Source of the DNA: Campylobacterota bacterium
GTDB lineage: Bacteria; Campylobacterota; Campylobacteria; Campylobacterales; Sulfurimonadaceae
Direction of reading: 5' to 3'
Assembly (NCBI GenBank): GCA_034661055.1
Contig: JAYEKO010000079.1
Coordinates: 1 to 30,390 of the forward strand
DNA length: 30,390 nucleotides
Positions 59 to 27,155 of the stretch are shown here, one piece after another. The position numbers were made by a program, and so were the translations under genes. Positions within the stretch are counted from its first letter, which is position 1; each line of letters starts with the position of its first letter. The notes beneath the pieces are model-generated. The model was given only the letters and a program-made list of their open reading frames with translations. It was not told where the DNA came from and ran no database searches.

Positions 59-137
59 TTTTTGGATTTAATCTATTATCATCTTTTTCGCAATTAGCTT
101 AGCTCTCACAAAACAACTCTTTATTTTTACATGTAAT

Positions 138-1076
138 TTATGGAATATATACTTTGTCAATTAACTCTTGATATTCCTCTTTAGAATTACTATCCAATGT
201 AATACCTCCACCGCTTTTATAAATTAATTTATTGCCATCTATCTCAATAAAGCGTATCATAACTGAAGTCTCTAATTTTTTACCATCAAACACTCCAAAT
301 ACTCCTGTATAGTAGTCTCTATTGTACTCTTCAGTATCTTCAATAATTCTCAAGGTACTTAGTTTTGGCGTACCACTAATGCTGCCTGCAGGTAGTAGTG
401 TTTTAATTATATTTCCAAGATTATTTTTCCAGTTGTTTTGCAAAGTACCTTTTATTTTTGAACTGACTTGTAGCAATTCTTTATTGCCTGCATTTATTTT
501 CTGCACAAAACGAAATTTTTCAACCTCTATATTTTTTGCTACTATTGCTATATCATTTCTTAGTAGATCAACTACCATGACATGTTCTGCCATCTCTTTT
601 TTATCTGATAGTATTTTTTTTTCAGCATCTCTAATTGATGCGTCTATTGTACCTTTCATGGGATAGGTTGAAATTGTATTTTCTTCTATTGTTATGAATG
701 GTTCAGGCGAAAAGCATACAAACTTATTTTTTACATGTAATTTGTAAGTGGCTTGAGATGTTTGAAAAATTTCATCAAGAGACAGGTTTGTTTTTATCTC
801 TGTGGGTTGTGTTAGATTTAGAAGATAGGTTTCACCTGCTTCAATTTTTGATATTATTTTATCAAATTTAATTTTGTATTTTTGATAAGAAATTGGATTT
901 TTTTCTAACTCTATTTTTTTATGCTTTAAGATGGGCGTTTTGTTGATTGCATATTCTATACCATGATTTATAAGATTATTAAGTGGATATACATGTAGTT
1001 TTTCTCCTTTAAAATCTGTATAAAAGAGAAATGGAATATTCTGTGATGCTAAGGTTGAGAGGGTGTCAAATGTCAT
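138..1076 (-). CDS. pabB: Aminodeoxychorismate synthase component I (short form)
   Basis: Chorismate-binding (MST) motifs [49 protein letters not shown]. Confidence 0.9.
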
Positions 1077-1941
1077 GTATTAGTTTTTTTAAAACTGCCA
1101 TTCGAATCGAGACACCATTTTTTACCTGTTCTAGTACTTTACAGCGTTTATCTGAAAGTAATGCATCGTCAATATCAATATTTCTATGAACGGGACCAGG
1201 GTGTAAAATAATAATATCACGATTTCCTACTAGCTCTTTAGTAATGCAAAAATCACTGGCATAATCTTTTAGTGAGGCGTAGTTCTGCGCTGAATGACGT
1301 TCTGTTTGAGTGCGTAAACTCATAATAATGTCAGTAGAATTAATAACATCTTTTAAATCTGATGTTGTCTTTAAATCTGTTTGTGGTAAAAACTGAGGAG
1401 GAGCTACGAGTGTAATGTCGAGTCCAAATCGTTGTAATAGTTCTATATTACTGTTGGCTACACGAGAGTTTTTTACATCACCAACTATAGCAATTTTTTT
1501 ACCTTTAACATCGCTAAAATGCTGCTTTATGGTAAAGAGGTCTAATAGAGCTTGCGTAGGATGAGCATGTGCACCATCACCTGCATTAATAATTGCAGCT
1601 TTAGTGTGTTGTGACAGAATTTGAGGAACACCGGCATTAGCATGTCTAACAATGATGGCATTAGGGCCCATAGCATCTAAGTTTGTTGCAGTATCTACTA
1701 AAGTCTCACCTTTTTTTGTAGAGCTTTTTGCAAGATCTAGATGAACAATTTGTGCACCTAAGCGTTTTACTGCAATTTCAAATGAGCTTCTAGTTCTAGT
1801 TGAGTTTTCGAAAAACAGTGTAATAATAATTTTATCTTCAAGGATTTTCTCAAAACGGCCATCTGAATAACGTGTGGCATCATCAAAAATAGCGTTAATC
1901 TCTTCAATGCTAAAATCATCAGTACGAATTAAATGTGGCAT
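1066..1941 (-). CDS. pyrB: Aspartate carbamoyltransferase catalytic subunit
   Basis: [34 protein letters not shown] motifs; GGAG RBS upstream. Confidence 0.97.
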
Positions 1942-1963
1942 TGTTGCTCCAATATTTTGTGAA

Positions 1964-1972
1964 AGTATAGCA
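1964..1972 (-). promoter_or_regulatory. Putative sigma70 extended -10 (TGCTATACT) for pyrB-pabB
   Basis: Minus strand reads TGcTATACT 22 nt before the pyrB ATG, with a GGAG RBS in between. Confidence 0.55.
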
Positions 1973-2614
1973 TCAAATTACTAGCAATTTGTCCACAAGG
2001 TCTTTTATATCAGTATTGAAAATAAAAAGGTCACTAAATTTAGTATCAAAATATGGTTTAGAGACAGTTTTAAAAGAGTCATTGTTTTCTCTACAGTTGA
2101 GTGTAAATGTGTGTGGAATATTGTATTGTTGAAGTAGGTTAAGGCTTAAAAGAGTGTCATTAATACAACCTAAGTTACAGTGTGATACTAAAAGAGTTTT
2201 AGCATTAAAGTGTTTAATTAAATCGACCATCATCAATTTAGAATCAATAGGAACTAAAAGCCCACCAGCACCTTCAATAATAAGAATATCACATAATTTT
2301 TCAAATTTTTTAACTGCATTGTCAATAGTGTTTAGGTCAATATCTTTAGCATCATTGGCGATATAAGGGGCTGCGGGTAGTGAGAACTGTATTGGTACAA
2401 TATCATCTACATGTAAATTTTCAAGTTCTTGGTTAAGTGATTGAGATAAGGTTAGGAGCTCTGTGCCATCTAAAGGTGCATTAGTAACACCTGTTTCAAT
2501 GGGTTTAAAAGCAGCAATACGGAATCCTCGTCTTGAAAGCTCTTTTAAAAGTAGCTTTGTAACATAAGTTTTTCCAATATCTGTATTTGTGGCGGTAACA
2601 AATATTTTTATCAT
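1973..2614 (-). CDS. bioD: Dethiobiotin synthase
   Basis: [11 protein letters not shown]-loop, [26 protein letters not shown] motifs. Confidence 0.96.
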
Positions 2615-2676
2615 TTAGATTGTCTCTTTTTTGGTTATAATCTCTCTTAAAATATTACACTATATTAGGTTTAAGT

Positions 2677-3933
2677 ATGCAAAAATTCGAAAAATTTAAT
2701 ACAAAGCTTGTCCAATCAATAGGAAATAAAGAGGGAGCTGTATCTCAACCAGTAGTAGGTTCAGCATCGTTTTCATACGGAACTCCAGAAACTGCAGAGG
2801 GAATCTTTGATGGTAGTATAAAAAAACCGCTCTACTCTCGTATGGGAAACCCAACTTCAGCAAAACTTGAGTCAGTTTTAGCAGATATGGATGGTGGTGT
2901 TGGTGCTATTGTGACAAGTTCTGGAATGGCAGCGACCACCTTAGCTACCATGTCTTTGTTGCGTAGCGGAGATGAAATTATTAGTATTGGTGGGCTATTT
3001 GGAGGAACTTACTCATTTTTTAGTGAAACGTTGAGTCGTTTTGGAATAACTACACAGTTCTTTGATGTGGATGATTTAGGGGCAATCAAAGGTGCTATTA
3101 CTCAAAATACAAAAATACTCTTTTTAGAGAGTGTTGGTAATCCAAATATGCGTTTACCTGACATTGCTAAAATTGCTCAAATTGCTAATGAAGTTGGAGT
3201 TGTTTTAATTGTAGATAATACTATTACTCCTATTAGTGTTACACCACTTGAGCTTGGAGCAGATATTGTTGTCTATTCAACAACAAAAATTATAAGTGGA
3301 AACTCTTCTGCTCTTGGTGGAGCTGTCGTCTTTCGTGCAATAAAGGATGAAGATAAGTTTAGAGGTCAACGTTACAAGGATCTGCATAAATTTATTAAGA
3401 AGATGGGAAAAACTGCACTGATTGCTAATGGCAAAAAACGGGCTATGCGTGACTTTGGGATGAGTGCTAATGCACAGGCAAGTTATCTTACCCTGCTTGG
3501 ACTTGAAACACTGCCTCTTAGGCTAGAGCGTATTGTTAATAGCACAGAAGTAGTAGCTCAAAAGCTTGATGAGGCAGGATTACATGTAAATCATCCATCT
3601 CTTGGTAATCATCCTCACAATAAGCGATATAATACACTTTTTAAAGATGGATGTGGAACGTTAATGGGGATTGATTTTGGTACGAAAGAGCGTGCTTTTA
3701 AGTTTTTAAGAGCTACTAAGCTTTCAACAATTACAGCCAATATTGGTGACAGCAGAACATTAGCGCTGCATACAGCAACTACTATATATAGTGATTTTAG
3801 TGATCAGGAAAGAGAGTTTTTAGGAATAACTGATGGACTGGTGCGTATTTCAATCGGTCTTGAGTCTCCTGAAGATATTGTTGCTGATTTTTTAAAAGCA
3901 GCAAATAGTTTAACTAAAGATTGCTACATTTAA
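2677..3933 (+). CDS. PLP-dependent Cys/Met metabolism enzyme, O-acetylhomoserine aminocarboxypropyltransferase (MetY/MetZ)-like
   Basis: YSRMGNPT, SSGMAA, IVDNT, STTK (PLP lysine), ANIGDSRTL, GLVRISIGLE. Upstream TATAAT at 2636-2641. Confidence 0.85.
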   Translation: MQKFEKFNTKLVQSIGNKEGAVSQPVVGSASFSYGTPETAEGIFDGSIKKPLYSRMGNPTSAKLESVLADMDGGVGAIVTSSGMAATTLATMSLLRSGDEIISIGGLFGGTYSFFSETLSRFGITTQFFDVDDLGAIKGAITQNTKILFLESVGNPNMRLPDIAKIAQIANEVGVVLIVDNTITPISVTPLELGADIVVYSTTKIISGNSSALGGAVVFRAIKDEDKFRGQRYKDLHKFIKKMGKTALIANGKKRAMRDFGMSANAQASYLTLLGLETLPLRLERIVNSTEVVAQKLDEAGLHVNHPSLGNHPHNKRYNTLFKDGCGTLMGIDFGTKERAFKFLRATKLSTITANIGDSRTLALHTATTIYSDFSDQEREFLGITDGLVRISIGLESPEDIVADFLKAANSLTKDCYI

Positions 3934-3947
3934 AGAGGAAATTATTT

Positions 3948-4247
3948 TTGAGTACAAAAAGAGATTTAGAATTAGAAGGTGAGCTCTTAGCAGAGACACC
4001 TAAAATGTATAAAGTCTATCTTTTAAATGATGACTATACGTCTATGGATTTTGTTACAGATGTTTTAATGACAATTTTTCATAAAAGTTATCAAGATGCA
4101 GAGCGCATTATGCTTGATATTCATAAAAAAGATAAGGGTCTTTGTGGAGTCTATAGTTTTGAGATTGCAGAGACAAAAGTGATGCAAGTAAGTAAACTTG
4201 CACGTGAACAGGGGTTCCCATTAAAAAGTATTATGGAGGAAGAGTAG
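3948..4247 (+). CDS. clpS: ATP-dependent Clp protease adaptor ClpS
   Basis: YKVYLLNDDYTSMDFV and GFPL motifs. Start moved to in-frame TTG 3948, which follows a GAGG RBS and removes the overlap with the upstream gene. Confidence 0.95.
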   Translation: MSTKRDLELEGELLAETPKMYKVYLLNDDYTSMDFVTDVLMTIFHKSYQDAERIMLDIHKKDKGLCGVYSFEIAETKVMQVSKLAREQGFPLKSIMEEE

Positions 4248-6422
4248 ATGATTAGTGCTGAATTAAACTCAGTGTTTCAAAAAGCATTACTGTTTGCTAA
4301 GGATCAGCGACATGAGTACCTGACAATAGAGCACGTGTTTTTTGCACTATTAGGATCTAAAGAAGGTGTTCAAGTCATTAAGGAGTGTGGAGGAGATGTC
4401 GCTTCGATGCGAGAAGCTCTAGGTAACTATTTAATGAACACTATGGAAAAACTTCCTAATGATGTCACACAAGAGCCATTTGAGACGGTAGCCCTTTCGC
4501 GTCTTATAGATAAGATGATTAGACATATTCAAAGTGCTCAAAAAGAGCATGCTCAAGTTGGTGACCTGATGGCATCTATTTTTGAAGAAGAGAATACATA
4601 TGCTCACCTTTTGCTGGTAGAACATGATATATCAAGAGTAGATGTTTTAGAAGCTATTTCACATAATGGTGTCGATGCACAGAGTGAAAATGAGTCTGAG
4701 AGCTATCTAGAGAAATTTACTATTAACATGGTTAATGTTGCCAAAGAGGGGAAAATTGATCCGGTAATTGGACGTCAAGATGAGATTAATAGAGTGGTAC
4801 AGACGCTATGTCGTCGTAAGAAAAACAACCCTCTTTTAGTAGGAGAACCTGGTGTGGGTAAGACTGCTATTGCTGAAGGGTTAGCAATTGAAATAGCGCA
4901 AGAGAGAGTTCCTGAAATTTTAAATGGAGCACCTCTATTTGCTTTAGATTTAAGTGCTATGCTTGCTGGAACAAAGTATCGAGGAGATTTTGAGAAACGT
5001 CTTAAAGGTGTTCTTGATGAGCTTAAAACCTATGATAATGCTATTTTATTTATTGACGAAATACACACACTCGTAGGTGCTGGTGCAGTGAGTGGCGGTA
5101 GTATGGATGCATCTAATCAATTAAAACCGGCATTGGCTTCGGGTGAACTAAAATGTATGGGTGCAACAACCTACGGTGAGTTTAGAAATGTATTTGAAAA
5201 AGATAGAGCACTGAGTCGTCGCTTTGCAAAAATTGATATTGATGAACCTTCAAAAGAAGATACCTTGCTTATTTTAAAAGGTTTACGAGCGCGTTATGAG
5301 AAGCATCATAGTCTGAAATATACCGATAAAGCCCTTAAAGCTGCAGTTGATCTCTCTAAAAAATATATTACCGATAGATTTTTACCCGATATTGCAATTG
5401 ATTTAATGGATGAGGCAGGGGCATCATTTCATCTTAAAAAGAAAAAACGCATTACAGTAACGCCGTTAGATGTTGAGAAGATAATATCTAAAATTACAGG
5501 TGTTCCTACCTCTAAAATAGCGGAAGATGATGTTCTTAAGTTAGCGTCACTTGAAAATGATTTAAAAGCTCGAGTTATTGGACAAAATAGTGCTGTAGAG
5601 AAAGTAGCACTCTCTATTAAAAGAAGTCGTGCGGGGCTTAATAGAGAAGATAAGCCGATTGCATCGTTTCTGTTTTCAGGTCCAACAGGTGTGGGTAAAA
5701 CAGAACTGGCACGTTCTTTAGCAGATACTTTAGGTGTTAATTTTGAACGTTTTGATATGAGTGAATATATGGAGAAACATGCACTGAGTCGCTTGGTTGG
5801 TGCACCTCCTGGATATGTTGGGTATGAGCAGGGTGGACTACTTACTGAAGCAATTCGAAAGCATCCCTACACTGTATTACTACTCGATGAGATTGAAAAA
5901 GCACATCCAGAGCTTATAAATATTTTACTACAGGTAATGGACAGTGCAACTCTTACTGATAACAATGGATTTAAAGCTAATTTTAAAAATGTTGTACTTA
6001 TTATGACCTCAAATATTGGGGCAACAGAACGTAGTGTTATGGGATTTAATGCTGATAGTTCACTTTCACGTGATGAAGCACTTAAATCATTTTTTACACC
6101 AGAATTTCGAAATAGACTTGATGCAGTCGTTGAATTTGCACCACTTGATTTACATGTAGTTGAGGGAATTGTAACTAAGTTTATTATGGATCTTAATACT
6201 CAGCTAAAGAGTAAGAAAATTAGTGTAGAGTTGACCTCTAAGGCCATAGGTTATATTGCTGAGATGGGATATGATAAAGAGATGGGAGCTCGTCCATTGG
6301 AACGTATTATTCAAGAGAAAATTAAAGACCCATTGACTGAAGAGATGCTCTTTGGAACGCTTAAAAATGGTGGTAAGGTAACCGTGGATTATAAAAAACA
6401 GTTGGAGTTTAATTACAGTTAA
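4248..6422 (+). CDS. clpA: ATP-dependent Clp protease ATP-binding subunit ClpA
   Basis: Clp N-domain and two AAA+ modules (GEPGVGKT, GPTGVGKT); no long M-domain; MGF ClpP-binding loop; follows clpS. Confidence 0.96.
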   Translation: MISAELNSVFQKALLFAKDQRHEYLTIEHVFFALLGSKEGVQVIKECGGDVASMREALGNYLMNTMEKLPNDVTQEPFETVALSRLIDKMIRHIQSAQKEHAQVGDLMASIFEEENTYAHLLLVEHDISRVDVLEAISHNGVDAQSENESESYLEKFTINMVNVAKEGKIDPVIGRQDEINRVVQTLCRRKKNNPLLVGEPGVGKTAIAEGLAIEIAQERVPEILNGAPLFALDLSAMLAGTKYRGDFEKRLKGVLDELKTYDNAILFIDEIHTLVGAGAVSGGSMDASNQLKPALASGELKCMGATTYGEFRNVFEKDRALSRRFAKIDIDEPSKEDTLLILKGLRARYEKHHSLKYTDKALKAAVDLSKKYITDRFLPDIAIDLMDEAGASFHLKKKKRITVTPLDVEKIISKITGVPTSKIAEDDVLKLASLENDLKARVIGQNSAVEKVALSIKRSRAGLNREDKPIASFLFSGPTGVGKTELARSLADTLGVNFERFDMSEYMEKHALSRLVGAPPGYVGYEQGGLLTEAIRKHPYTVLLLDEIEKAHPELINILLQVMDSATLTDNNGFKANFKNVVLIMTSNIGATERSVMGFNADSSLSRDEALKSFFTPEFRNRLDAVVEFAPLDLHVVEGIVTKFIMDLNTQLKSKKISVELTSKAIGYIAEMGYDKEMGARPLERIIQEKIKDPLTEEMLFGTLKNGGKVTVDYKKQLEFNYS

Positions 6423-7087: not shown

Positions 7088-7126
7088 ATATTTTCTTTGT
7101 AAAATTCAGAAAAAATAAGGGTTGAA

Positions 7127-7273: not shown

Positions 7274-7350
7274 GCTATAGAATATTTCATGTTAAATCTT
7301 ATTTAAGCTACTTTCTTTTATACTGTGATACCAAAATAAAAAGGGTGTTT

Positions 7351-7797: not shown

Positions 7798-7809
7798 TTG
7801 CTGCATTAT

Positions 7810-9724: not shown

Positions 9725-9745
9725 AATTAATTATATTGGATATAC

Positions 9746-10729
9746 ATGTATATTGAAGAGTTGAAATTTTCGCTGTGGGCGGATTTTATTGAACGAGATT
9801 TTATTACAACAGGCTTGAGAGCATATATTAAAAATGGTGTAGTCAATGGAGCAACATCAAACCCAGCAATTTTCAAAAATGCAATTTTAACCTCACCTGC
9901 GTATAAAGAGCAGTTGGCAAGTTTGACACATTTAAGTGCCAAAGAGAAATATGAAGCGGTGGCAATTTACGATATTCAAGCTGCAGCAGATGAACTACTT
10001 GCCCTATTTGATGCTGGTGATAGTGGATATGTAAGTATAGAGGTAGATCCTTTTTTGTGTGATGATGCTGAAGCAACTATAGAAGAGGCAAAGCGACTCT
10101 ATGCTCAAATCAATCGTCCCAATGTTATGATTAAAGTTCCTGCTACTACAGCAGGTTATATTGCAATGGAAGAGCTAACTGCTTTGAATATTGCAGTAAA
10201 TGCAACACTAATCTTTAAAAAAGAGCAGGCTGTTTCATGTGCTGAGGCATTTAAAAGAGGAATGCAGAAGTCTGGGCAAGTAGTAGATACAGTAATTAGT
10301 ATTTTTGTCAGTAGAATTGACAGAGCTCTTGATGTAGAGTTAGGCAAGAATAACATATATACTGCAAAAGCAGGGATTTATAACGCGTCACAAATCTATG
10401 AAGCTATTGAAAGTAGAGCTATCCCCTCTTGTCGAGCACTTTTTGCAAGTACTGGGGTTAAAGGTGATGTACTTAACCCATCATATTATATTGAAGAAAT
10501 GTTGGCATTTAATAGCGTAAACACTGCACCTTTAGATGCTATTGATGCCTATATTAAGAGTAATACTAAAAGTAAAAAGCTCCCAATTGCAGCTACTGAT
10601 GTGCAGAGCTTATTTAGTGATATTGATAAACTTGGCATTGATTTTGATGCACAGCTACAGACTCAAATAGATGATGGTCTAGAAGCATTCAAAGATGCTT
10701 TTCAAGAGATTTTAGACGCACTACAATAA
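9746..10729 (+). CDS. tal: Transaldolase
   Basis: GATSNPAIF, VSIEVDP, NVMIKVPAT (Schiff-base Lys), VNATLIF, SIFVSRID, LFASTGVK. Confidence 0.96.
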   Translation: MYIEELKFSLWADFIERDFITTGLRAYIKNGVVNGATSNPAIFKNAILTSPAYKEQLASLTHLSAKEKYEAVAIYDIQAAADELLALFDAGDSGYVSIEVDPFLCDDAEATIEEAKRLYAQINRPNVMIKVPATTAGYIAMEELTALNIAVNATLIFKKEQAVSCAEAFKRGMQKSGQVVDTVISIFVSRIDRALDVELGKNNIYTAKAGIYNASQIYEAIESRAIPSCRALFASTGVKGDVLNPSYYIEEMLAFNSVNTAPLDAIDAYIKSNTKSKKLPIAATDVQSLFSDIDKLGIDFDAQLQTQIDDGLEAFKDAFQEILDALQ

Positions 10730-10745: not shown

Positions 10746-11960
10746 ATGCAGCACATAGATTTACATGTAGAAGACTTGACTTTTGAGACATTAAAGAAGG
10801 TTAGAGGTTATCTTAAACGTCTTGTAGATGCAGGTGGTAGTGATTTACATGTAAAAGCAAATGCTGTTATACGGGCACGTATTAATGGTGATATTGTGCC
10901 ACTTTCTGGAGAGGTGTTTTCTAAAAAAGATGCTTTAGTATTTGCAAAAGAGCTTCTTCGTGGTCGTTTTGAAGAGTTTGTTAATGCTAAAGAGCTGGAT
11001 TTAGTCTATCCTTTTGATGATAATACCCGTTTTCGTGTTAATATCTTTTTCCAGATGGAAGGAATCTCGGCAGTATTTCGTGTGATTCCTGTTCGTATTC
11101 TCTCAATAGATGAGTTAAAACTCCCTAATATTATTCATCAGTTTTCAGAACGAGAGCGTGGTTTAGTTTTGGTTACGGGAGTAACAGGTAGTGGTAAATC
11201 AACAACGCTAGCAGCTATTATTAATGAGATTAACTGGAAGCATCGTAAGCATATTATTACAGTTGAAGATCCAATTGAGTTTGTACATAAAGATAGAAAG
11301 TGTATTGTAAACCAACGTTCTGTCGGACAAGATACACAATCGTTTGGAACAGCGCTGCGTGCTGCTCTTCGTGAAGACCCTGATATTATATTAGTTGGGG
11401 AGATGCGTGACTTGGAGACGGTGGAAATTGCTCTTCATGCCGCAGATAGTGGACACCTTGTATTTTCAACTCTGCATACTCTTGATGCCAAAGAGACAAT
11501 AAATCGTATTATTGGTATGTTTCCTAAAGAGGAACAACAACGTGTTAGAATGACACTTTCAGCTGTATTAGCAGGTGTTATTTCACAACGTTTGATTCCT
11601 ACTATTGATAAAAAACGTATCGCAGCACTTGAAGTGATGCTTCATACTTCTTTTGTAGAACAGCTTATTGTTGAAAATAGAGACAGCGAGATCTTAGATG
11701 CTATTGAAGCAGGTAAGCAGATCCATGGGTCACAAAGTTTTGATCAGGGTATCTTAGATATTTACAACTCAGGTATTATCTCAAAAGAAGAGGCTTTTAA
11801 ATATGCTACATCAGCAAGTGACTTAAAGCTTAAAATGGATGGATTAGCTGCAGTGAATAAAGATGCCAATGTTCCTAAAGAGGATGATACTGTAGATGAA
11901 GGTGTTAGTAATGAAGAAGATGCATTTCATGAAGATGATATTTTTGCTCTAAAATCTTAG
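10746..11960 (+). CDS. pilT: PilT/PilU-family type IV pilus retraction-type ATPase
   Basis: SDLH, RFRVNIF, Walker A GVTGSGKST, Asp box TVEDPIE, Walker B DPDIILVGEMRD, His box GHLVFSTLH. Confidence 0.88.
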   Translation: MQHIDLHVEDLTFETLKKVRGYLKRLVDAGGSDLHVKANAVIRARINGDIVPLSGEVFSKKDALVFAKELLRGRFEEFVNAKELDLVYPFDDNTRFRVNIFFQMEGISAVFRVIPVRILSIDELKLPNIIHQFSERERGLVLVTGVTGSGKSTTLAAIINEINWKHRKHIITVEDPIEFVHKDRKCIVNQRSVGQDTQSFGTALRAALREDPDIILVGEMRDLETVEIALHAADSGHLVFSTLHTLDAKETINRIIGMFPKEEQQRVRMTLSAVLAGVISQRLIPTIDKKRIAALEVMLHTSFVEQLIVENRDSEILDAIEAGKQIHGSQSFDQGILDIYNSGIISKEEAFKYATSASDLKLKMDGLAAVNKDANVPKEDDTVDEGVSNEEDAFHEDDIFALKS

Positions 11961-12025: not shown

Positions 12026-12562
12026 ATGTTAGAAGGTATTATTAGAGAGAGTATTGACAAAAGTGCAACAAAAGCACTACGTCGTGATGGTTATCTGATT
12101 GCTAACATCTACGGAAAAGGGCTTGAAAATATCAATGCCGCATTCAAAATGAATGAATACATCCGTACTGTTCGTAAGAAAGAGACGTTAGCATTTCCAG
12201 TAACGGTTAACGGAGCTGAGATGAACCTTGTTGTTCAAGGGTATGAGTCTCATCCTGTTACAGGAAACCTTTTACATGTAGATTTAATGGTAGCACAGCC
12301 CGGTGTTGTAACGCACTACATGGTGCCTGTTACTACTGATGGTTTAGCAATTGGTATTAAGAACAAGGGTCTATTAAATGTAGCTAAAAAACGTTTACGA
12401 GTTAAAGCTGCTATTGAAAATATTCCAAATAGTATTATTGTCAATGTTACTGATCTTGATCTTGGTGACTCTGTGCTTATTCGTGATTTAGATACTATTA
12501 ATAGTGTAGCATTTACAGATGCTGACCGTGTATCTGTATTAAGTATTATTAAAGCGAAATAA
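12026..12562 (+). CDS. rplY: 50S ribosomal protein L25 / general stress protein Ctc
   Basis: LRRDGYLIANIYGKG and HPVTGNLLHVDL motifs; precedes pth; AAGGA RBS. Confidence 0.96.
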   Translation: MLEGIIRESIDKSATKALRRDGYLIANIYGKGLENINAAFKMNEYIRTVRKKETLAFPVTVNGAEMNLVVQGYESHPVTGNLLHVDLMVAQPGVVTHYMVPVTTDGLAIGIKNKGLLNVAKKRLRVKAAIENIPNSIIVNVTDLDLGDSVLIRDLDTINSVAFTDADRVSVLSIIKAK

Positions 12563-14301: not shown

Positions 14302-15510
14302 TTGATTAATTTTACACAGTTGGCACAAAAGTATAGTACTCCGTTGTATGTTTATGATTTTGATATGATGAAAGCTCAATATGAGCAGCTAAAAACTGCA
14401 TTCAAAGGGCGTAAATCAATTTTGGCCTATGCTATTAAAGCTAACTCCAACCTAAGTGTCATTAAACATTTTGCAGATCTTGGTGCTGGGGCTGACTGTG
14501 TCTCAATTGGTGAAGTAAGACGGGCACTTTTGGCCGGTATTGCTCCTTATAAGATCATTTTTAGCGGTGTTGGTAAGTTAGATGCTGAAATAAGAGAAGC
14601 GATACAGAGTGATATTTTATATATCAATCTTGAGAGTAGCGCAGAGCTAGAGCGTGTCGAAATGATTGCAAAAGAGTTGGGTAAAGTGGCTCGTATTAGC
14701 ATACGAGTGAACCCAAACATAGATCCAAAAACACACCCGTATATATCTACTGGACTGCATGGAAACAAGTTTGGAGTTGATCTAAATAGTGCAAAACGAA
14801 TGTATATTTTAGCAAACAACTCAGAGTATCTTGATCCGGTAGGCGTTCACTTTCATATTGGCTCACAACTGACTGAATTAGAGCCTATACGTGAAGCAGC
14901 TATTATTGTTGCAGACTTGGTACGTTCTCTGCAGACCATTAAAATTAATCTCAAGTTTTTTGATGTCGGTGGTGGTTTGGGTATCTGCTATGATAATGAA
15001 GAGACCATAGAGCCTTACATGTATGCTCAAGCAATACTCTCTACTCTAACTGGCTTGGAGTTGACTGTAATTGGAGAGCCTGGGCGTTTCTTAACTGCTA
15101 ATGCAGGTTATTTTGTGACTAAAGTACTTTATGAAAAAACTAATGATGAGAAACGTTTTGTTGTTGTCGATGGAGCGATGAATGATCTCTTAAGGCCATC
15201 TCTTTATGGTGCTTACCATAAGATTACTACGGTTGATGTTGATGGTGATAGCTCTCCTACAGACATTGTAGGGCCAGTGTGTGAAAGTGGAGATTTCTTT
15301 GCTAAAGACTATGAGCTTCCAGTTATGAAGCATAATGACCTATTGGTTGTCCATAGTGCTGGGGCCTATGGTTTTGGTATGGGTAGTAATTACAACTCAA
15401 GAGGTCGTTCAGCTGAAGTAGCAGTAAGTGATGGAGGTGATCGTTTAATTCGAAAGCGTGAAACATTTGAAGACCTGATTGCATTAGAAACAGAGTATTT
15501 ACAAGCTTAA
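14302..15510 (+). CDS. lysA: Diaminopimelate decarboxylase
   Basis: TPLYVYD, YAIKAN (PLP Lys), HFHIGSQ, EPGRF, GPVCESGD, AGAYG, SNYNSR; TTG start. Confidence 0.96.
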   Translation: MINFTQLAQKYSTPLYVYDFDMMKAQYEQLKTAFKGRKSILAYAIKANSNLSVIKHFADLGAGADCVSIGEVRRALLAGIAPYKIIFSGVGKLDAEIREAIQSDILYINLESSAELERVEMIAKELGKVARISIRVNPNIDPKTHPYISTGLHGNKFGVDLNSAKRMYILANNSEYLDPVGVHFHIGSQLTELEPIREAAIIVADLVRSLQTIKINLKFFDVGGGLGICYDNEETIEPYMYAQAILSTLTGLELTVIGEPGRFLTANAGYFVTKVLYEKTNDEKRFVVVDGAMNDLLRPSLYGAYHKITTVDVDGDSSPTDIVGPVCESGDFFAKDYELPVMKHNDLLVVHSAGAYGFGMGSNYNSRGRSAEVAVSDGGDRLIRKRETFEDLIALETEYLQA

Positions 15511-17691: not shown

Positions 17692-17707
17692 TTACATGTA
17701 GGTTTGA

Positions 17708-23074: not shown

Positions 23075-23800
23075 TTGATCCAATAGTATAACTCCAGCTT
23101 GTCGTCCGGTCATCCCGTTTTCAGCACGGTAAGAGTAAAATGTTTCACTTTCGCAGGATGTGCAGTGCTTTAGCGTCTCAATATTCTCCTCTTTAACACC
23201 CGCTTCTTTTAGCTGCATTTCTAAAATATGATTTACATGTAAAAAGTATTTCCCTTCTTTTTGTAATATGCTTTTTTCATAACCTAGCTCTTTAGCTTCA
23301 CAATAAATAGTATGATTTACCTCATAGCAATTTTGACAAATTGAAGGTCCCAAAACAGCAATGATTGTATCTGTTTTAGTGTTGAATTTTTGATGCATCA
23401 TAGCAATAGTGTTTTTAATAATATTGCTAAATGCTCCTGCCCGACCTGCATGAATGGCGGCAATAGCATGTGAGCTTTTATCGTATAGTAGTACAGGAGT
23501 GCAGTCTGCTACCATGACCATTAATGGAGTATTTATTCTATTGGTAATAATAGCATCACACTCTATAGGGGTTTTGAAGTTATTGATTGCATCGACCTGT
23601 ACTACTTTATTGGAGTGCAACTGTCTCATATGAATGAGATCTCCATGATTATATTTAAGTTGTGATGCGAGTACTTTATGGTTGTTAATAACATTATGCT
23701 CATCATCACCTACATGAAAAGCAAGATTATGACTGTTTTTACATGTAAATGCATGGGGGATAGAAACAGATAATAAAAGTTTGGAATTAAATAACTTCAT
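23069..23800 (-). CDS. pgeF: YfiH/PgeF-family peptidoglycan editing factor / purine nucleoside phosphorylase
   Basis: NLAFHVGDD, QLHS, VADCTPVLL, AAIHAG, GPSICQNCYEV, CTSC, YSYR, TGRQ. Confidence 0.92.
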   Translation of the reverse strand: MKLFNSKLLLSVSIPHAFTCKNSHNLAFHVGDDEHNVINNHKVLASQLKYNHGDLIHMRQLHSNKVVQVDAINNFKTPIECDAIITNRINTPLMVMVADCTPVLLYDKSSHAIAAIHAGRAGAFSNIIKNTIAMMHQKFNTKTDTIIAVLGPSICQNCYEVNHTIYCEAKELGYEKSILQKEGKYFLHVNHILEMQLKEAGVKEENIETLKHCTSCESETFYSYRAENGMTGRQAGVILLDQS

Positions 23801-23824
23801 AATATTTAGTATAGCACAAAAGTT

Positions 23825-23833
23825 TGATACAAT
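23825..23833 (+). promoter_or_regulatory. Putative extended -10 (TGATACAAT) for the ovoA operon
   Basis: TGnTACAAT 20 nt before TTG 23854, with an AAGG RBS at 23844-23847. Confidence 0.5.
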
Positions 23834-23853
23834 ATAAAAAATTAAGGTCTATT

Positions 23854-25962
23854 TTGAGTCAGTTAAGTATGCTTCCCATCACTTTAGATGGAGATAATGT
23901 CACTACAAAACGTCAAGAGATACGAGACTATTTTCATAATACGTATGCTCTTTTTGAATTACTTTTTACAATGCTTAAAGACGATTCAGTCTTTTACAAA
24001 CAGTCTGAGATAACACGTCATCCAATGATTTTTTACTATGGACATACGGCAACTTTTTTTATAAACAAGCTTATTTTAGGTGGCGTTATTACTAAAAGAA
24101 TCAACGGTGATTTTGAATCTATGTTTGCTATTGGTGTAGATGAAATGAGTTGGGACGATATGGACAAAACTCATTATTCATGGCCAAAAGTTAGAGATGT
24201 TAAAGTCTATAGAGACGCAGTAAAAACAGCTGTAGATAATCTCATTATGACGTTACCTATGACTCTTCCTATTAAACAAGATGACCCATTTTGGATTATC
24301 TTAATGGGAATTGAGCATGAACGTATTCATATTGAAACTTCTAGTGTCTTGCACCGTCAATTAGATATTACAGATGTGCAGTGCATCGATGCATTGAAAT
24401 GTTCAACTAATTATGGTGATGCTCCTTCAAATAAATTAATTAAAGTAGATGCAGGTAGTGTAAACTTAGCAAAAGAGAGAAGCCATAATTTGTATGGCTG
24501 GGATAATGAGTATGGTCAAAGTAATATACATGTAAATGCGTTTGAGGCTTCAAAGTTCTTAGTTAGCAATGGCGAATATTTAGATTTTGTCACCGATGGA
24601 GGCTATGCAAACAGCATATATTGGGATGATGAGGGAAAGAAATTTTTAGATATAACAGGTGCACAGCACCCACCATTTTGGGTAAAACAAGATGATGGAA
24701 GTTTTAAATATAGAACACTTTCTCAAGAGATTTCTATGCCACAAAATTGGCCAGTGGACGTTAATCAACTTGAAGCCATGGCATTTTGTAGGTGGAAATC
24801 TAAAAGAGATGATGTTACCTACACTCTGCCAAGTGAGGCAGAGTGGTTTCGTCTGTATGAGTTAAGTGGTTTAAGTGACGAGAATGATTTTAATATATAT
24901 CGTGCCAATTTAAACTTAGCGCACTACGCTTCTGCAACAGCAGTAGATGAGTTTGGATTTGGAGCTTTTTACGATATTGTTGGAAATGTTTGGCAGTGGA
25001 CATCAACACCAATAGATGGATTTGAAGGTTTTAAAGTACACCCTATTTATGATGATTTCTCAACTCCGACCTTTGATGGTAAACATAATTTAATTAAAGG
25101 TGGCTCTTTTATTAGCTCTGGAAATGAGATTATGAAACACTCCCGTTATGCTTTTAGACGCCATTTTTATCAGCATGCAGGGTTTCGTTATGTAGTTGAT
25201 GGCGGTGCTGTTAAGAGCGAAAAAAATATTTATGAGACCGATTCTCTAGTTTCTCAATATTGCGATTTTCAGTATCAAGAAGGCTATTTTGAAGCAGCAA
25301 ACTTTGCAAAAAAATGTGCAGAACTCTCTGTGGAATATGTTAATGACTTACAACAGGTTAAAGCTTTAGATATTGGATGTGCAACTGGACGTAGCAGTTT
25401 TGAATTGGCGCGTTATTGTAATGAGGTAGCAGGTATCGATTTTTCTGCTCGTTTTATTCAAGTTGGTGTAACTATGAAAAATAGTGGCGTCATACATTAT
25501 GAACGTCAAGAGGAAGGCGATTTTAAAAGTAAGGTTAGTGTGACACTAGAAGCTCTAGACTTGCAAGAGGTGGCAAGCAGTGTGAACTTTTTTCAAGGAG
25601 ACGCCTGTAACTTAAAAGCACACTTTAGTGGTTATAATCTGATTATGGCAAATAATCTTATTGACCGTCTTTACGAGCCAAAACTATTTCTACAAGACAT
25701 TCATAAGCGTCTTAATGATAAAGGAATCTTAGTTCTTACTTCACCATATACATGGGATGAGAGCTACACTAAAAAAGAGTTCTGGCTAGGTGGATATTGT
25801 GATGAGACAGGAGAAAAAGTCTATACATTAGATGGGTTAAAATCACTTCTTCTTAAGAATTTCGAGCTTCTAAATACGCATGATGTTCCTTTTGTAATTC
25901 GTGAGACACCTCGTAAATTTCAGCACACTGTTTCACAAATGAGTGTCTGGAGAAAACGTTAA
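23854..25962 (+). CDS. ovoA: 5-histidylcysteine sulfoxide synthase / methyltransferase OvoA (ovothiol biosynthesis)
   Basis: RHPMIFYYGHTA, GVDEMSWDD, iron motif HERIHIE (HX3HXE), FGE-sulfatase domain (YGWDNEYG, GNVWQW, RYAFRRHFYQHAGFR), C-terminal SAM MTase (DIGCATGR, QGDACNLK, RETPRKFQH). TTG 23854 is preferred over 23824 from RBS and promoter positions. Confidence 0.93.
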   Translation: MSQLSMLPITLDGDNVTTKRQEIRDYFHNTYALFELLFTMLKDDSVFYKQSEITRHPMIFYYGHTATFFINKLILGGVITKRINGDFESMFAIGVDEMSWDDMDKTHYSWPKVRDVKVYRDAVKTAVDNLIMTLPMTLPIKQDDPFWIILMGIEHERIHIETSSVLHRQLDITDVQCIDALKCSTNYGDAPSNKLIKVDAGSVNLAKERSHNLYGWDNEYGQSNIHVNAFEASKFLVSNGEYLDFVTDGGYANSIYWDDEGKKFLDITGAQHPPFWVKQDDGSFKYRTLSQEISMPQNWPVDVNQLEAMAFCRWKSKRDDVTYTLPSEAEWFRLYELSGLSDENDFNIYRANLNLAHYASATAVDEFGFGAFYDIVGNVWQWTSTPIDGFEGFKVHPIYDDFSTPTFDGKHNLIKGGSFISSGNEIMKHSRYAFRRHFYQHAGFRYVVDGGAVKSEKNIYETDSLVSQYCDFQYQEGYFEAANFAKKCAELSVEYVNDLQQVKALDIGCATGRSSFELARYCNEVAGIDFSARFIQVGVTMKNSGVIHYERQEEGDFKSKVSVTLEALDLQEVASSVNFFQGDACNLKAHFSGYNLIMANNLIDRLYEPKLFLQDIHKRLNDKGILVLTSPYTWDESYTKKEFWLGGYCDETGEKVYTLDGLKSLLLKNFELLNTHDVPFVIRETPRKFQHTVSQMSVWRKR

Positions 25963-27155
25963 TGTTTCAAACTGTAGCTAATCGAGCTAACAGTAACGCC
26001 GAGAAGTATCAATTACGAGAGAAGCTTTTTGGTACTAATGATGTTTTGCCTATGTGGGTGGCAGATATGGATATTAATACACCTCAATATGTCCTTGACG
26101 CACTGCAAGAACGTATGAAGCATAAGGTCTTTGGTTATGAGATGATGCCAGAATCTGCCTATGCAGCTCAAATAGAGTGGGTAAAACAGCGCAATAAGTA
26201 CTCTATAGAGCGTGAATGGATGTTCTATTCGCCTTCAGTTGTTGCCACAATTAATATGGCAATAAAAGCGTTTAGTGATATTGGCGATGAGGTGATTATT
26301 CAGCCTCCAGTTTACGCACCATTTCAAAGCAGCATTATAAATAACGATAGAGTTGTAATTAAAAACCCACTTCAATGTGATGAAAATGGTGATTACGGGT
26401 TTGATTTAGAAGATTTAAAATCTAAAATTACATGTAAAACAAAATTGCTTATTTTATGTTCTCCTCATAATCCGGTTGGGCGGGTGTGGAGTCGTAGTGA
26501 GCTAAAAACTTTAAGTGAGATATGTTTAGAGCATAATATTAAAATTATCTCTGATGAGATTCATTGTGACCTTATATATGCTCCAAATGTTCATACTCCA
26601 CTAGCTTCATTGAGTGATGCCGTTAGTGACATTACCATTACAATGATGGGACCAGGAAAAACATTTAATCTTGCAGGTTTAAGTATCTCTACCGTTGTTG
26701 TTGCCAATACTAATATGCGAGAGCGATTTAAAGCGGTTTATAAGAGTATCCATTTTGCTGAGGGTACTGTTTTTGGGCACATTGCATTTGAGTCTGCTTA
26801 TAGACATGGCAAAACTTGGCTAAATGACCTGCTTCTACACTTAAGCATAAATCAGCGTAAGTTAGAGGAAGTATTAAAAAAACATGACAACTTAATTACA
26901 TGTAAATTTCCACAAGGAACATACTTGGCATGGTTGAAGTGTGATAAAATGGGCTTAACGAATAAGCAGTTGCGTCACTTTTTTACTAAAAAGGCTAGGT
27001 TGGGCCTGAGCCCAGGTCTTGGTTTTGGTAAGGAAGGTGATGGTTATATGCGTCTTAACTTTGCTGTTTCAGCTGAAACAATAGATGAAGCCGTAAGACG
27101 ACTTGAGAGTGCTTTAAATAATTTTAATGTGAGGTGTATGAGTGATAAAAATTGA
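25962..27155 (+). CDS. PatB/MalY-family PLP-dependent C-S lyase
   Basis: LPMWVADMD, LCSPHNPVGRVW, ISDEIH, PGKTFNLAGL, GTYLAW, RLNFA; TAATG-coupled to ovoA. Confidence 0.92.
   Translation: MFQTVANRANSNAEKYQLREKLFGTNDVLPMWVADMDINTPQYVLDALQERMKHKVFGYEMMPESAYAAQIEWVKQRNKYSIEREWMFYSPSVVATINMAIKAFSDIGDEVIIQPPVYAPFQSSIINNDRVVIKNPLQCDENGDYGFDLEDLKSKITCKTKLLILCSPHNPVGRVWSRSELKTLSEICLEHNIKIISDEIHCDLIYAPNVHTPLASLSDAVSDITITMMGPGKTFNLAGLSISTVVVANTNMRERFKAVYKSIHFAEGTVFGHIAFESAYRHGKTWLNDLLLHLSINQRKLEEVLKKHDNLITCKFPQGTYLAWLKCDKMGLTNKQLRHFFTKKARLGLSPGLGFGKEGDGYMRLNFAVSAETIDEAVRRLESALNNFNVRCMSDKN

Follow-up and report, generated by a model that had tools for sequence, protein, structure and literature searches.

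Why would one palindromic octamer, TACATGTA, recur 17 times in a 30,390-nt stretch of a Campylobacterota genome (the window, by which we mean the whole of the DNA analysed)? All 17 start positions listed in the original prediction are exact matches, where 0.56 would be expected; 100 dinucleotide-preserving shuffles of the window gave a mean of 0.56 copies (sd 0.70, maximum 3), and none held at least 17. The other counts in that prediction are equally accurate: of 20 ACATGT hexamers in the window 17 fall within the octamer (the exceptions being 580, 9104 and 29977), and eight of the 17 copies are TTACATGTAA (128, 732, 3581, 10846, 23234, 23740, 26429 and 26897). The copies are given below with the encoded peptide and the relatives that share them, G000 being the genome of the window; orthologues were mapped with a 20-kb query, outside which the copy at 23234 falls.

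128..135, intergenic, 10-mer form (TTTTACATGTAATT); shared at the aligned position by G001 and G002
732..739, chorismate-binding enzyme ORF (138-1076, minus strand), phase xTA-CAT-GTA, L-H-V-K, 10-mer form; kept in G004, G001 and G007, 1 nt off in G002 and G003
990..997, chorismate-binding enzyme ORF (138-1076, minus strand), CTA-CAT-GTA, L-H-V-Y; kept in G004, G001 and G002
2408..2415, AAA_26 (BioD-like) ORF (1973-2614, minus strand), L-H-V-D; kept in G004, G001, G002 and G007, and present next to an alignment gap in G009
3581..3588, Cys/Met PLP-enzyme ORF (2677-3933, plus strand), L-H-V-N, 10-mer form; motif in G004, G007, G009, G037 and G080, while G001 and G002 keep L-H-V via TTG-CAC-GTC and TTG-CAT-GTG
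6151..6158, Clp-type AAA ATPase ORF (4248-6422, plus strand), L-H-V-V; common to G004 only
9743..9750, supplying the ATG start codon of a transaldolase ORF (9746-10729, plus strand); kept in G004, G001, G002 and G003
10762..10769, type II/IV secretion ATPase (T2SSE) ORF (10746-11960, plus strand), L-H-V-E; specific to G000, the motif being absent at that position from relatives
10846..10853, T2SSE ORF (10746-11960, plus strand), L-H-V-K, 10-mer form; motif in G004, G002, G035, G080 and G197, with CTC-CAC-ATT in motif-poor G159
12273..12280, ribosomal protein L25 ORF (12026-12562, plus strand), L-H-V-D; motif in G004, G002, G003, G005, G007, G035 and G197, while motif-poor genomes retain L-H-V-D via TTA-CAC-GTA, CTT-CAT-GTC and TTA-CAT-GTT
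15016..15023, Orn/DAP decarboxylase ORF (14302-15510, plus strand), phase TAC-ATG-TAx, P-Y-M-Y-A
17693..17700, in the 17-bp spacer between an aminotransferase ORF (ends 17690) and fliF (starts 17708); kept in G004, G001, G003 and G005
23234..23241, Cu-oxidase_4 ORF (23069-23800, minus strand), L-H-V-N, 10-mer form
23740..23747, Cu-oxidase_4 ORF (23069-23800, minus strand), phase xxT-ACA-TGT-Axx, F-T-C-K, 12-mer TTTACATGTAAA
24527..24534, FGE-sulfatase/methyltransferase ORF (23824-25962, plus strand), ATA-CAT-GTA, I-H-V-N
26429..26436, aminotransferase ORF (25962-27155, plus strand), I-T-C-K, 10-mer form
26897..26904, aminotransferase ORF (25962-27155, plus strand), I-T-C-K, 10-mer form

Fourteen copies thus lie in ORFs, where they encode L-H-V (9), I-H-V (1), x-T-C-K (3) or Y-M-Y (1), and three (128, 17693 and 9743) lie between genes or at the edge of one; the word is carried by genes on both strands, in all three phases, and by intergenic DNA, as had been claimed. 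Counted against Markov and codon-aware models, the excess is genome-wide, not local to the window, and independent of reading frame. TACATGTA is the top-ranked 8-mer of G000 with 899 copies, is found on 92/92 contigs at 0.13-0.96 per kb, and has observed/expected (O/E) ratios of 13.7, 18.7, 18.7, 28.2 and 11.6 under Markov orders 0 to 4; the ratios under orders 5 and 6 (2.5 and 1.1) are circular and no refutation, because the conditioning 6- and 7-mers are themselves mostly motif copies. Genome-wide, 899 of 1103 ACATGT fall inside TACATGTA. CATG overall is not enriched (6220 observed, O/E 0.71 given its trimers), and outside the motif it is under-represented. Copies per 5-kb segment are Poisson-like (mean 2.38, variance 2.20), with a modest deficit in compositionally atypical segments (1.85 vs 2.44 copies, P 0.02). 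One-mismatch copies stand at background, with 396 per Mb in G000 and 401 in G007 against 149-424 in motif-poor genomes.

Such a word might be a passive by-product of a favoured peptide or codon pair, of a dispersed mobile element (MITE), or of Tc1/IS630-type excision footprints (TA + CATG + TA). It does have the form TA-CATG-TA, and 68% of the coding copies lie in one phase, encoding L/I-H-V. However, all three phases are used genome-wide (516, 195 and 46 copies), and the motif is twofold denser in intergenic than in coding DNA (0.84 vs 0.43 per kb). ORFs hold 755 copies, against 129.4 ± 9.4 after a protein-preserving synonymous shuffle (20 runs, maximum 143) and 32.4 ± 5.2 after a shuffle of codon order (maximum 43); the earlier argument against a peptide or codon-usage origin is upheld by this frame independence and by both shuffles. 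The octamer fills almost all peptide contexts able to carry it (L-H-V 399/422, I-H-V 99/116, Y-M-Y 42/46, x-T-C-[A..] 194/236), the share of L-H-V contexts predicted from codon usage to do so being 9.5%. The proteome is itself skewed, LHV being 5.2x and TCK 6.4x as frequent as expected, and sites can override protein conservation: the copy at 15016 is a G000-specific gain that replaces a conserved Asp with Met (Y-D-Y in 13/14 relatives mapped and K-E-Y in G010, with G001 unaligned there). Gains such as this arise via substitution, and no 6-bp indel was seen at aligned motif sites in 10 relatives; the few indels near sites are 1-nt alignment gaps or lie within the poorly aligned 17693 spacer. 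Sequence conservation stops ~3 bp outside the core. The use of all phases and of intergenic DNA, the shuffles, the short conserved flank and the substitution-only differences between orthologues refute a passive by-product, to which we attach next to no probability.

Within a highly iterated palindrome with flanks that vary between lineages, TACATGTA forms the invariant core. The full symmetric site is ~12-14 bp long, ATTTACATGTAAAT in this genus, and the extended palindrome is seen in intergenic copies and in all coding phases. Other genera have the extended form CTTACATGTAAG, a lineage 'dialect' that makes up 14-39% of 10-mers in g3 and g5; in 8/12 g33 genomes its share is 35-62%, and in g1 it is 0-0.4%, with TTTACATGTAAA accounting for 246/452. 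G197 has a third flank pattern.

The sites persist across species in which silent sites are otherwise scrambled. Between species only 73-78% identical, orthologous copies were kept in 9/11 cases against 0.16-0.18 for control octamers (P 6e-6); the other comparisons gave 6/11 and 6/12 against 0.10, and 4/9 against 0.10 in G007; in motif-poor genomes 0/7, 0/10 and 0/4 were kept. The DNA flanking the motif is slightly below average in conservation, and it is therefore the motif itself that is retained. Site-by-site selection would account for this if the palindrome were bound by an abundant protein that organises the chromosome or associates with the nucleoid, perhaps in a manner sensitive to CATG methylation, with each copy retained for its role in chromosome structure, replication or segregation. 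Xu et al. (PMC5861425) propose this for HIP1 of cyanobacteria and read strong site conservation as per-site selection and not as replenishment by a drive. A symmetric ~14 bp site with lineage-specific flanks is what a co-evolving dimeric binding protein would be expected to produce, and the near-uniform distribution over all contigs and the lack of a halo of decayed copies fit as well. Yet there are ~900 sites, 84% of them within genes, each of which would have to be worth a changed protein; near-total occupation of compatible codon contexts resembles blanket conversion, not a set number or spacing; the spacing is no more regular than random (CV 0.95 vs 1.00±0.03); and no candidate binding protein was identified. 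We consider this explanation unlikely.

Across 201 sampled genomes of the family, those of genera g1, g3, g5, g31 and g33 are motif-rich without exception, those of g2 only sporadically so, and the remaining genera stay at background level. On the species tree the motif-rich pair G080 and G197 is nested among motif-poor g2 species, and hyper-abundance has been gained or lost several times. This clade restriction, together with the positional conservation of sites, supports the original prediction of a HIP1-like, genome-wide process acting at the level of DNA. The CATG core had also been put forward as a possible methylation target, with which gene content is consistent: among the genes of G000 is an orphan methyltransferase of the D12 class, with annotated homologues (53-54% identity) that bear the name NlaIII (CATG), a name from which its presumed CATG specificity is taken. 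A close homologue is present in 27/35 motif-rich vs 15/166 motif-poor genomes, the link is seen within g2 alone (median copies 12 vs 5, P 0.004), and this is the only gene correlate of motif load that we found. Across motif-rich genera the gene stands as an orphan in conserved synteny, next to xseA in g1 and to recO in both g3 and g5; its sequences form deep genus-specific clades. The methyltransferase is nevertheless neither necessary nor sufficient for motif abundance: no D12-class enzyme was found in motif-rich G080 and G197 (both single-contig assemblies at 100% completeness, with 340 and 397 10-mers), nor in G063 (99% complete), and motif-poor G199 and G209 carry an orphan homologue at the same dxr-tsaD position as motif-rich g33.

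The link between methyltransferase and motif load invites a transposition of Elhai's model for HIP1, in which methylation-linked biased repair corrects mismatches at or close to marked sites towards the motif, or marked sites are shielded, so that sites accumulate as a mutational ratchet. Background near-cognates and long-lived perfect sites fit a ratchet of 'reduced loss', and the methyltransferase adjoins DNA repair and recombination genes; xseA encodes ExoVII, which participates in mismatch-repair excision. A MutS_I-bearing ORF of ~1000 aa occurs in 175/201 genomes. The canonical machinery was not found, however, and methylation-directed repair, one of the mechanisms first suggested, is weakened: Vsr was found in 0/8 motif-rich genomes (and in 2 of the 31 genomes searched overall), a search for MutH in G000 was negative, and MutL turned up in 0/21 genomes of the order in a search whose control matched 11/14 reference genomes. 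The occurrence of C5 methyltransferases does not follow that of the motif, with none detected in G002 or G009, and no route through deamination is known to us for m6A. Motif abundance in G080 and G197 comes without the D12 enzyme, and a CATG mark would leave eight invariant bases, the lineage flanks and the low O/E of CATG itself unexplained. Dcm/Vsr very-short-patch repair (CCWGG enrichment) and Chi resemble the present case in that a DNA repair or recombination enzyme alters how often a short word occurs, but the first differs in the Vsr and C5 results just given, and Chi sites are asymmetric, orientation-skewed and only few-fold enriched, whereas a palindrome cannot be orientation-skewed. 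Biased repair is, in our judgement, quite unlikely.

The methyltransferase family elsewhere sits in restriction-modification (R-M) islands, which raises a defence-related reading: a dense, possibly methylated word would separate the chromosome from invading DNA for an immune system, and the host would therefore be selected for many copies. The clade-specific, dialect-like word with repeated turnover, its deficit in compositionally atypical segments and the under-representation of CATG outside it are all in keeping with this. But in none of the motif-rich genomes examined does the methyltransferase have a cognate nuclease as its neighbour, and no IceA/NlaIII-type endonuclease was detected in G000 in a weak search that matched no control genome either. 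Known R-M systems select against their own sites, not for them, and we know of no defence system with such a self-marking logic. Self-marking for defence seems very unlikely.

Among the mechanisms considered we favour a bias of uptake or recombination. A sequence-specific process at the DNA level writes and keeps the site in several lineages of one Campylobacterales family (probably Sulfurimonadaceae). As a tentative reading, the site may be a 'self' tag, read symmetrically by a putative dimeric DNA-binding factor of a natural transformation or recombination pathway; site-bearing DNA would be preferentially taken up or recombined, and alleles with the site would therefore replace those without, as for DUS and USS and as proposed for HIP1. 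The CATG core is probably N6-adenine-methylated in most lineages by the long-resident NlaIII-named orphan enzyme. Uptake parts are near-universal (ComEC 21/21, secretin 196/201, ComEA-type HhH 187/201) and those examined are equally present in motif-poor lineages, so that none explains the motif distribution; no specificity factor was identified. A literature search returned no uptake or transformation data for these organisms.

The uptake sequences of Neisseriaceae (DUS) and Pasteurellaceae (USS) are 'self' words of ~9-12 bp that recur throughout the genome. Their core is strict and their AT-rich flanks are weaker; the hundreds to thousands of copies lie mostly in genes and in weakly conserved protein segments, where they distort peptide content, and they too have lineage 'dialects'. 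TACATGTA shares these features, being genome-wide, mostly genic, strict in its core, distorting of peptides and split into dialects. DUS and USS are, however, surrounded by many decayed copies, and their organisms have been shown to be competent, with ComP as the DUS receptor; the present motif is without an excess of one-mismatch copies. It is also palindromic, which to our knowledge no known uptake sequence, DUS and USS included, is. A precedent for the methylated tag comes from C. jejuni, in which the orphan N6-adenine methyltransferase CtsM is described as marking RA(m6A)TTY, import being restricted to DNA that carries the mark (PMC10046745, which cites Beauchamp et al. 2017). Order, enzyme type and short palindromic-type site are alike as far as that account goes, and a methyl-marked uptake tag is therefore plausible in this family. 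RAATTY is nonetheless a degenerate 6-mer, which we have not met described as hyper-iterated, as against an exact 8-mer inside a ~14 bp site, and two motif-rich species here (G080 and G197) are without the methyltransferase class altogether.

TACATGTA is a real genomic tag of the HIP1/DUS kind, and its iteration is apparently new, no report having been found in the searchable literature. HIP1 (GCGATCGC) and the alternate cyanobacterial palindromes are likewise palindromic octamers among the commonest words of their genomes (PMC4390886, PMC5861425, PMC13756078); as these sources describe it, HIP1, like TACATGTA, occurs both intergenically and in every frame of genes, has lineage-specific 1-3 bp extensions and orthologous copies conserved between species, nests an orphan-methyltransferase site whose enzyme co-varies imperfectly with abundance, and is rare in some closely related genomes. 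A methylation-dependent uptake signal has been proposed for HIP1 (PMC13756078). The background level of one-mismatch copies, the palindromic form and the strong site conservation, the last of the kind from which Xu et al. argue, speak against uptake. TACATGTA differs from HIP1 in its phylum, in being AT-rich with a CATG core, and in that only an m6A-type (D12) enzyme is implicated; HIP1 has a reported periodicity of 10-90 kb, its one-mismatch derivatives are common according to Elhai (PMC4390886), and the model given there relies on MutS/MutL, of which MutL was not found in the 21 genomes searched of the present order. With ~900 copies in a sulfur-oxidising bacterium and its presence in related lineages, the motif provides a second bacterial group, beyond the cyanobacteria, in which repeats of the HIP1 type can be studied.

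The 30,390-bp window, contig C79 of the assembly, contains 17 copies of the palindromic octamer TACATGTA, where dinucleotide-preserving shuffles average 0.56 ± 0.70 and 0 of 100 attain that number; every one of the 17 start coordinates listed in the original prediction is exact. The hexamer ACATGT is present 20 times, of which 17 are the octamer itself and the rest lie at 580, 9104 and 29977, as had been claimed, and the eight copies reported to extend to the 10-mer TTACATGTAA do so. Copies were also said to fall on both strands, in all three codon phases and in intergenic DNA, and this is the case: 14 are within open reading frames (ORFs), encoding L-H-V (nine), I-H-V (one), x-T-C-K (three) or Y-M-Y (one), and the other three fall between genes or on the border of one, including the following.

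9743, gene edge: the ATG inside the motif is the start codon of a transaldolase ORF

The gene content of the window is otherwise that of ordinary housekeeping genes. A T2SSE gene (type II/IV secretion ATPase, PilT/PilB-like; 10746-11960) has two copies in its first 110 bp (10762 and 10846), one of them unique to the studied genome, G000, and the other common to five motif-rich genomes of four genera. The first ~70 bases of the window (1-72) have matches at multiple sites in related genomes, with 97% identity in the congener G004 and four 87% copies in G006. Neither ARAGORN nor Rfam at its gathering threshold called any feature in the window. The 1-72 segment is probably a truncated end of an element present in several copies, and that would explain the contig break at this point.

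Across the G000 assembly (1,908,352 bp; 92 contigs of up to 101 kb; 36.2% G+C; 83% complete), TACATGTA ranks first among all 8-mers with 899 copies, and is found on all 92 contigs at 0.13-0.96 per kb. Observed/expected ratios (O/E) under Markov models of orders 0-4 are 13.7, 18.7, 18.7, 28.2 and 11.6, nowhere near 1; the drop at orders 5 (2.5) and 6 (1.1) arises only because the conditioning words of these two models, 6- and 7-mers, are mostly motif copies (899 of 1103 ACATGT). A rough ORF prediction (minimum 100 aa; 1716 ORFs over 91.6% of the DNA) assigns 757 copies to genes (0.43 per kb) and 136 to intergenic DNA (0.84 per kb, twice the density), the coding copies being distributed over the phases xTA-CAT-GTA (516), xxT-ACA-TGT-A (195) and TAC-ATG-TAx (46). 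When synonymous codons are shuffled within genes, 129.4 ± 9.4 copies remain, and when codon order is shuffled, 32.4 ± 5.2, compared with 755 observed in ORFs. A peptide or codon-usage origin is ruled out by these shuffles together with the three phases and the intergenic copies, and the enrichment is confined neither to the window nor to a single reading frame. The proteome bears the imprint of the word: L-H-V occurs 422 times where 80 are expected, and T-C-K 127 times (6.4-fold). The motif occupies 399 of 422 L-H-V, 99 of 116 I-H-V, 42 of 46 Y-M-Y and 194 of 236 x-T-C-[A..] contexts, while codon usage predicts it in just 9.5% of L-H-V.

At short range, placement along the contigs looks random. 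The number of copies in 5-kb windows follows a Poisson-like distribution (mean 2.38, variance 2.20), a short-range test on G000 contigs found no even spacing (CV 0.95 versus 1.00 ± 0.03 for random), and no large motif-free islands were found: the longest gap is 11.5 kb, where random placement gives a mean maximum of 14.1 kb. Compositionally atypical 5-kb windows are slightly poorer in copies (1.85 versus 2.44, P 0.02). The 4-mer CATG is itself under-represented in G000 (6220 observed versus 8724 expected from trimers, O/E 0.71) despite the 1103 copies inside ACATGT, a deficit that may be a trace of earlier restriction against CATG sites other than those of the motif.

The conserved site is longer than the octamer. 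In G000 the core is preceded by A (59%), T (68%) and T (73%) and followed by A (69%), A (67%) and T (60%), and since the same flanking bases are seen in intergenic copies and in every coding phase, the flanks belong to the site, which spans ~14 bp in full. Given the core, the two flanks vary independently of each other (maximal-order O/E 0.99-1.00 for 10- and 12-mers). Conservation ends ~±3 bp from the core, which rules out a MITE or other dispersed element. The flanks also differ among lineages. In loci of genera g3, g5 and g33 of the same family, the position beyond the 10-mer is C/G rather than T/A, and CTTACATGTAAG makes up 18-39% of 10-mers in g3, 14-32% in g5 and 35-62% in 8 of 12 g33 genomes, as against 0-0.4% in g1, the genus of G000 (2 of 452 in G000 itself; random expectation ~3%), where TTTACATGTAAA accounts for 246 of the 452. 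A further variant occurs in G197, a motif-rich genome of genus g2, with C at -3 (48%) and G at +3 (46%). A strict core, weaker flanks and lineage-specific dialects are likewise characteristic of the DNA uptake sequences (DUS/USS) of Neisseriaceae and Pasteurellaceae.

Uptake sequences are, in addition, accompanied by a cloud of mutationally decayed one-off copies. Such a cloud is not seen for TACATGTA: words with one mismatch number 396 per Mb in G000 and 401 in motif-rich G007, from outside the genus, versus 149-424 in four motif-poor genomes. The converse idea, that one-nucleotide neighbours are depleted, was also rejected, as it rested on zero-order expectations and these words are at background level relative to motif-poor genomes; the control-word ratio for such neighbours in G000, 0.45, is inflated by motif flanks. 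In G080 and G197, two motif-rich genomes that lack the candidate methyltransferase described below, one-off words reach 490 and 330 per Mb, and variants at the outermost position 100 and 65 per Mb versus 38 in G000, the last comparison involving only 20 and 13 sites.

To follow individual sites, the 12 copies at window positions 1-20000 were mapped onto syntenic DNA of 15 relatives, a small sample. Congeners that are 73-78% identical share 9 of 11 (G004), 6 of 11 (G001), 6 of 12 (G002), 3 of 11 (G003) and 2 of 3 (G005) aligned copies, whereas control octamers in the same alignments are kept at 9-18% (motif versus control, P 6e-6 to 0.07). Outside the genus, G007 shares 4 of 9 aligned copies and G009 1 of 11; both aligned copies of G080, and two of the three in G197, stand at G000 positions; and the motif-poor G010, G006, G008 and G159 have zero copies in 10-17 kb of aligned DNA, with assorted synonymous codons at conserved L-H-V positions. 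The DNA 4-300 bp from sites is slightly less conserved than average (e.g. 0.749 versus 0.779), so that each motif is an island of conservation, and the raised flank conservation that would hint at local recombination was not seen. Gains of the motif are substitutions. At 15016, for example, thirteen relatives encode Y-D-Y and one K-E-Y where G000 has Y-M-Y (in P-Y-M-Y-A), through GAC to ATG. Footprints of transposon excision (TA+CATG+TA) can be dismissed, given that aligned sites have no 6-bp indels and orthologues differ by substitutions. One way to account for copies that are maintained singly is site-by-site selection for a chromosomal binding protein, an explanation that we regard as unlikely.

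Among 31 relatives, TACATGTA is hyper-abundant in all six genomes of g1 (421-1014 copies) and in two more genera of its family (1196 and 1155). Background numbers are seen elsewhere, with 8-58 copies in 11 additional genera of that family and 2-22 in 12 other families of the order; the reversed control word occurs 1-60 times in the same genomes. A survey of 201 genomes of the family, based on counts of TTACATGTAA (control 10-mer, 0-8), refines this picture. Every genome sampled from g1 (213-468), g3 (872-1146), g5 (772-1182), g33 (48-757; 12 of 12) and g31 (158) has a high count. Counts are mostly 0-19 among the 54 genomes of g2, with seven species at 340, 397, 96, 77, 45, 32 and 28, and 0-6 among the 54 of g29, with one genome at 22. 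Several single-contig genomes are motif-rich. In a tree of proteins encoded in the window (3,760 aligned residues), motif-rich G080 and G197 group together (100% support) inside the otherwise motif-poor g2, motif-rich g33 is sister to g4+g2, and g3 groups with g5, placements which indicate that the trait has changed state several times. Between sister species (G080 and G197 versus G006 and G159), motif load varies by a factor of 50 to 400. Samples of 25-33 kb from motif-poor G006, G008 and G010 contained no alternate hyper-abundant word.

The original prediction had proposed the CATG core as a methylation target. G000 encodes three candidate DNA methyltransferases, namely a D12-class enzyme (contig C91), a C5 enzyme (C22) and a type IIG-like ORF (C24); no N6_N4 methyltransferase was found there. 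The first is the candidate CATG enzyme.

G000:C91:11104-12081, same strand as xseA and starting 4 nt after it: D12-class methyltransferase, 326 aa

Homologues at 53-54% identity carry the source name "Modification methylase NlaIII", which we take to mean CATG recognition and m6A formation; PDB and NCBIfam gave no informative match. The gene is an orphan, with no cognate nuclease beside it, in every motif-rich genome examined. It lies after xseA (ExoVII large subunit) in g1, beside recO in g3 and g5, and between dxr and tsaD in g33 and g2; the repair/recombination genes xseA and recO are probably co-transcribed with it. In motif-poor genomes its upstream neighbours are, in several cases, an HTH controller-like gene and a second methyltransferase. 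The enzymes of g1, g3+g5 and g33 form deep clades in the D12 tree, and the copies from motif-poor g4, g27 and g2 sit on short cross-genus branches. The dxr-tsaD interval of g2 and g33 is an insertion hotspot for restriction-modification genes, holding an AccI endonuclease with an Eco57I-like methylase (G098, G163), two C5 methylases (G115), or an N6_N4 methylase together with an HTH controller and uncharacterised ORFs of 350-420 aa (G151, G159, G040 and G031).

With motif-rich defined as at least 28 10-mers among the 201 genomes, a close D12 homologue (E <= 1e-80) is present in 27 of 35 motif-rich and 15 of 166 other genomes, and within g2 the median is 12 10-mers with the homologue versus 5 without it (P 0.004), though both tests overstate the link because kin are not independent. 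Some genomes depart from this pattern on either side. The enzyme is missing from motif-rich G080, G197 and G063, each at least 99% complete, G085 has a weak, divergent match, and G199 and G209 carry the orphan gene in the g33 position yet contain only 8 and 6 10-mers. Motif-rich G079, of g33, has only a short D12 fragment with two internal TAA codons (G079:C70:34707-34880), and looks like a case of recent gene loss in which the motif load persists. HIP1-type palindromes contain a nested recognition site for an orphan methyltransferase that occurs together with the word. Here the motif co-varies with an orphan NlaIII-named enzyme, and its core may be methylated in most motif-rich lineages; three motif-rich genomes lack the gene.

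Repair, restriction and competence genes were surveyed in the same manner, a correlation of the motif with gene content having been suggested from the outset.

Repair, restriction and competence genes in the genomes searched
C5 methyltransferase: 20 of 31 genomes; not found in motif-rich G002 and G009
Vsr: 2 of 31 genomes, both motif-poor
MutS_I: 175 of 201 genomes; ORF of ~1000 aa
MutL: 0 of 21 genomes of the order; control detected in 11 of 14
ComEC: 21 of 21 genomes
Secretin: 196 of 201 genomes
ComEA-type HhH: 187 of 201 genomes

The suggested correlation holds, imperfectly, for the D12 methyltransferase; C5, MutS_I, ComEC, secretin and ComEA-type HhH do not discriminate motif-rich from motif-poor genomes. 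The competence machinery (ComEC, secretin, ComEA-type HhH) is present in the family of G000, and because it is equally present in motif-poor genomes we regard these genes as permissive only. A search of G000 for an IceA/NlaIII endonuclease gave no match and is uninformative, as its control detected none in any genome.

A methylation-linked repair bias could in principle create such a word, and is the basis of Elhai's model for the cyanobacterial palindromes, which calls for MutHLS-type repair with MutS, MutL and a methyl-sensing nickase. The family has a MutS1-like protein without its usual partner MutL, and no MutH was found in G000. Very short patch repair of the Dcm/Vsr type pairs Vsr with an m5C methyltransferase, a pairing not found in the motif-rich genomes among the 31 searched. 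Both Vsr genes detected, in motif-poor G011 (C11) and G025 (C26), have a C5 methyltransferase a few hundred bp to ~2 kb away on the same contig, and these loci are classical Dcm/Vsr-type pairs. The failure to find MutL in the order, MutH in G000 or Vsr in motif-rich genomes weakens the explanation by repair bias, which we consider very unlikely.

Taken together, these observations establish that a strong, sequence-specific pressure acting at the DNA level creates and preserves a symmetric ~14-bp site, that its flank preference evolves, and that the pressure can be switched on or off between sister species. This profile matches two known kinds of element, the cyanobacterial highly iterated palindromes (HIPs) and the uptake sequences, which recent work is now merging. 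The likeness to HIP1 put forward in the original prediction is well founded: TACATGTA is a palindromic octamer enriched more than ten-fold and the top 8-mer (O/E 11.6-28.2), it occurs in all frames and in non-coding DNA beyond what peptides or codon usage explain, and its orthologous copies are conserved above background (9/11, 6/11, 6/12 and 4/9 versus 0.09-0.18). HIP1 proper is GCGATCGC in a cyanobacterial host, and with another word in another phylum, Campylobacterota, the present motif is a HIP-like element and not HIP1. HIP1 is also reported to recur quasi-periodically along the chromosome (10-90 kb); the spacing covered in G000 is short-range. Cyanobacterial HIPs are described by Elhai 2015 (PMC4390886) and Xu et al. 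2018 (PMC5861425), and HIP1 is argued to be a methylation-dependent uptake signal by Rodriguez-Cruz et al. 2026 (PMC13756078), who cite transformation experiments, among them the preprint 10.1101/2024.09.10.611283. Our literature search, with supplements and subscription journals outside its scope, found among the best-ranked papers no report of TACATGTA as a bacterial genomic signal, and no paper on a Sulfurimonas uptake sequence or transformation specificity or on an uptake sequence in Epsilonproteobacteria. To our knowledge, DNA uptake licensed by the mark of an orphan methyltransferase occurs in one bacterium only, Campylobacter jejuni. It belongs to the same order and is reported to import only DNA with the mark of its orphan CtsM (PMC10046745). 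The motifs given for S. denitrificans in one published methylome are other than TACATGTA.

The reading we favor, as plausible though short of an even chance, is that the site is an uptake or recombination tag that is usually methyl-marked; its uptake step, site methylation and reader protein are what we infer from the pattern. Under this tag hypothesis the symmetric ~14-bp site would be read by a putative receptor that has diverged into dialects, and would be marked in most lineages by the orphan CATG m6A methyltransferase. Somewhat more tentatively, we suggest in full that free-living Campylobacterota use the palindrome as a sequence-specific signal for uptake and recombination, with a dialect-specific receptor and, mostly, a CATG m6A mark.

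The role of HIP1 has been debated for three decades, and the published work that we found concerns cyanobacteria only. The AT-rich motif described here is an independent counterpart of HIP1 from another phylum, and several of its features make the question easier to address: its flank dialects are clear and should follow differences in the reader protein, a single candidate methyltransferase occurs in the majority of motif-rich lineages though not in all, and sister species contrast in motif load. It is also a DNA-level signal that strongly reshapes the proteome, to the extent of a five-fold over-representation of L-H-V and the replacement of a conserved Asp by Met. If the tag hypothesis is true, at least two phyla would share a single phenomenon that covers both HIP-type palindromes and uptake sequences, and C. 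jejuni, with its methyl-licensed uptake, would have a degenerate relative of the palindrome tag.
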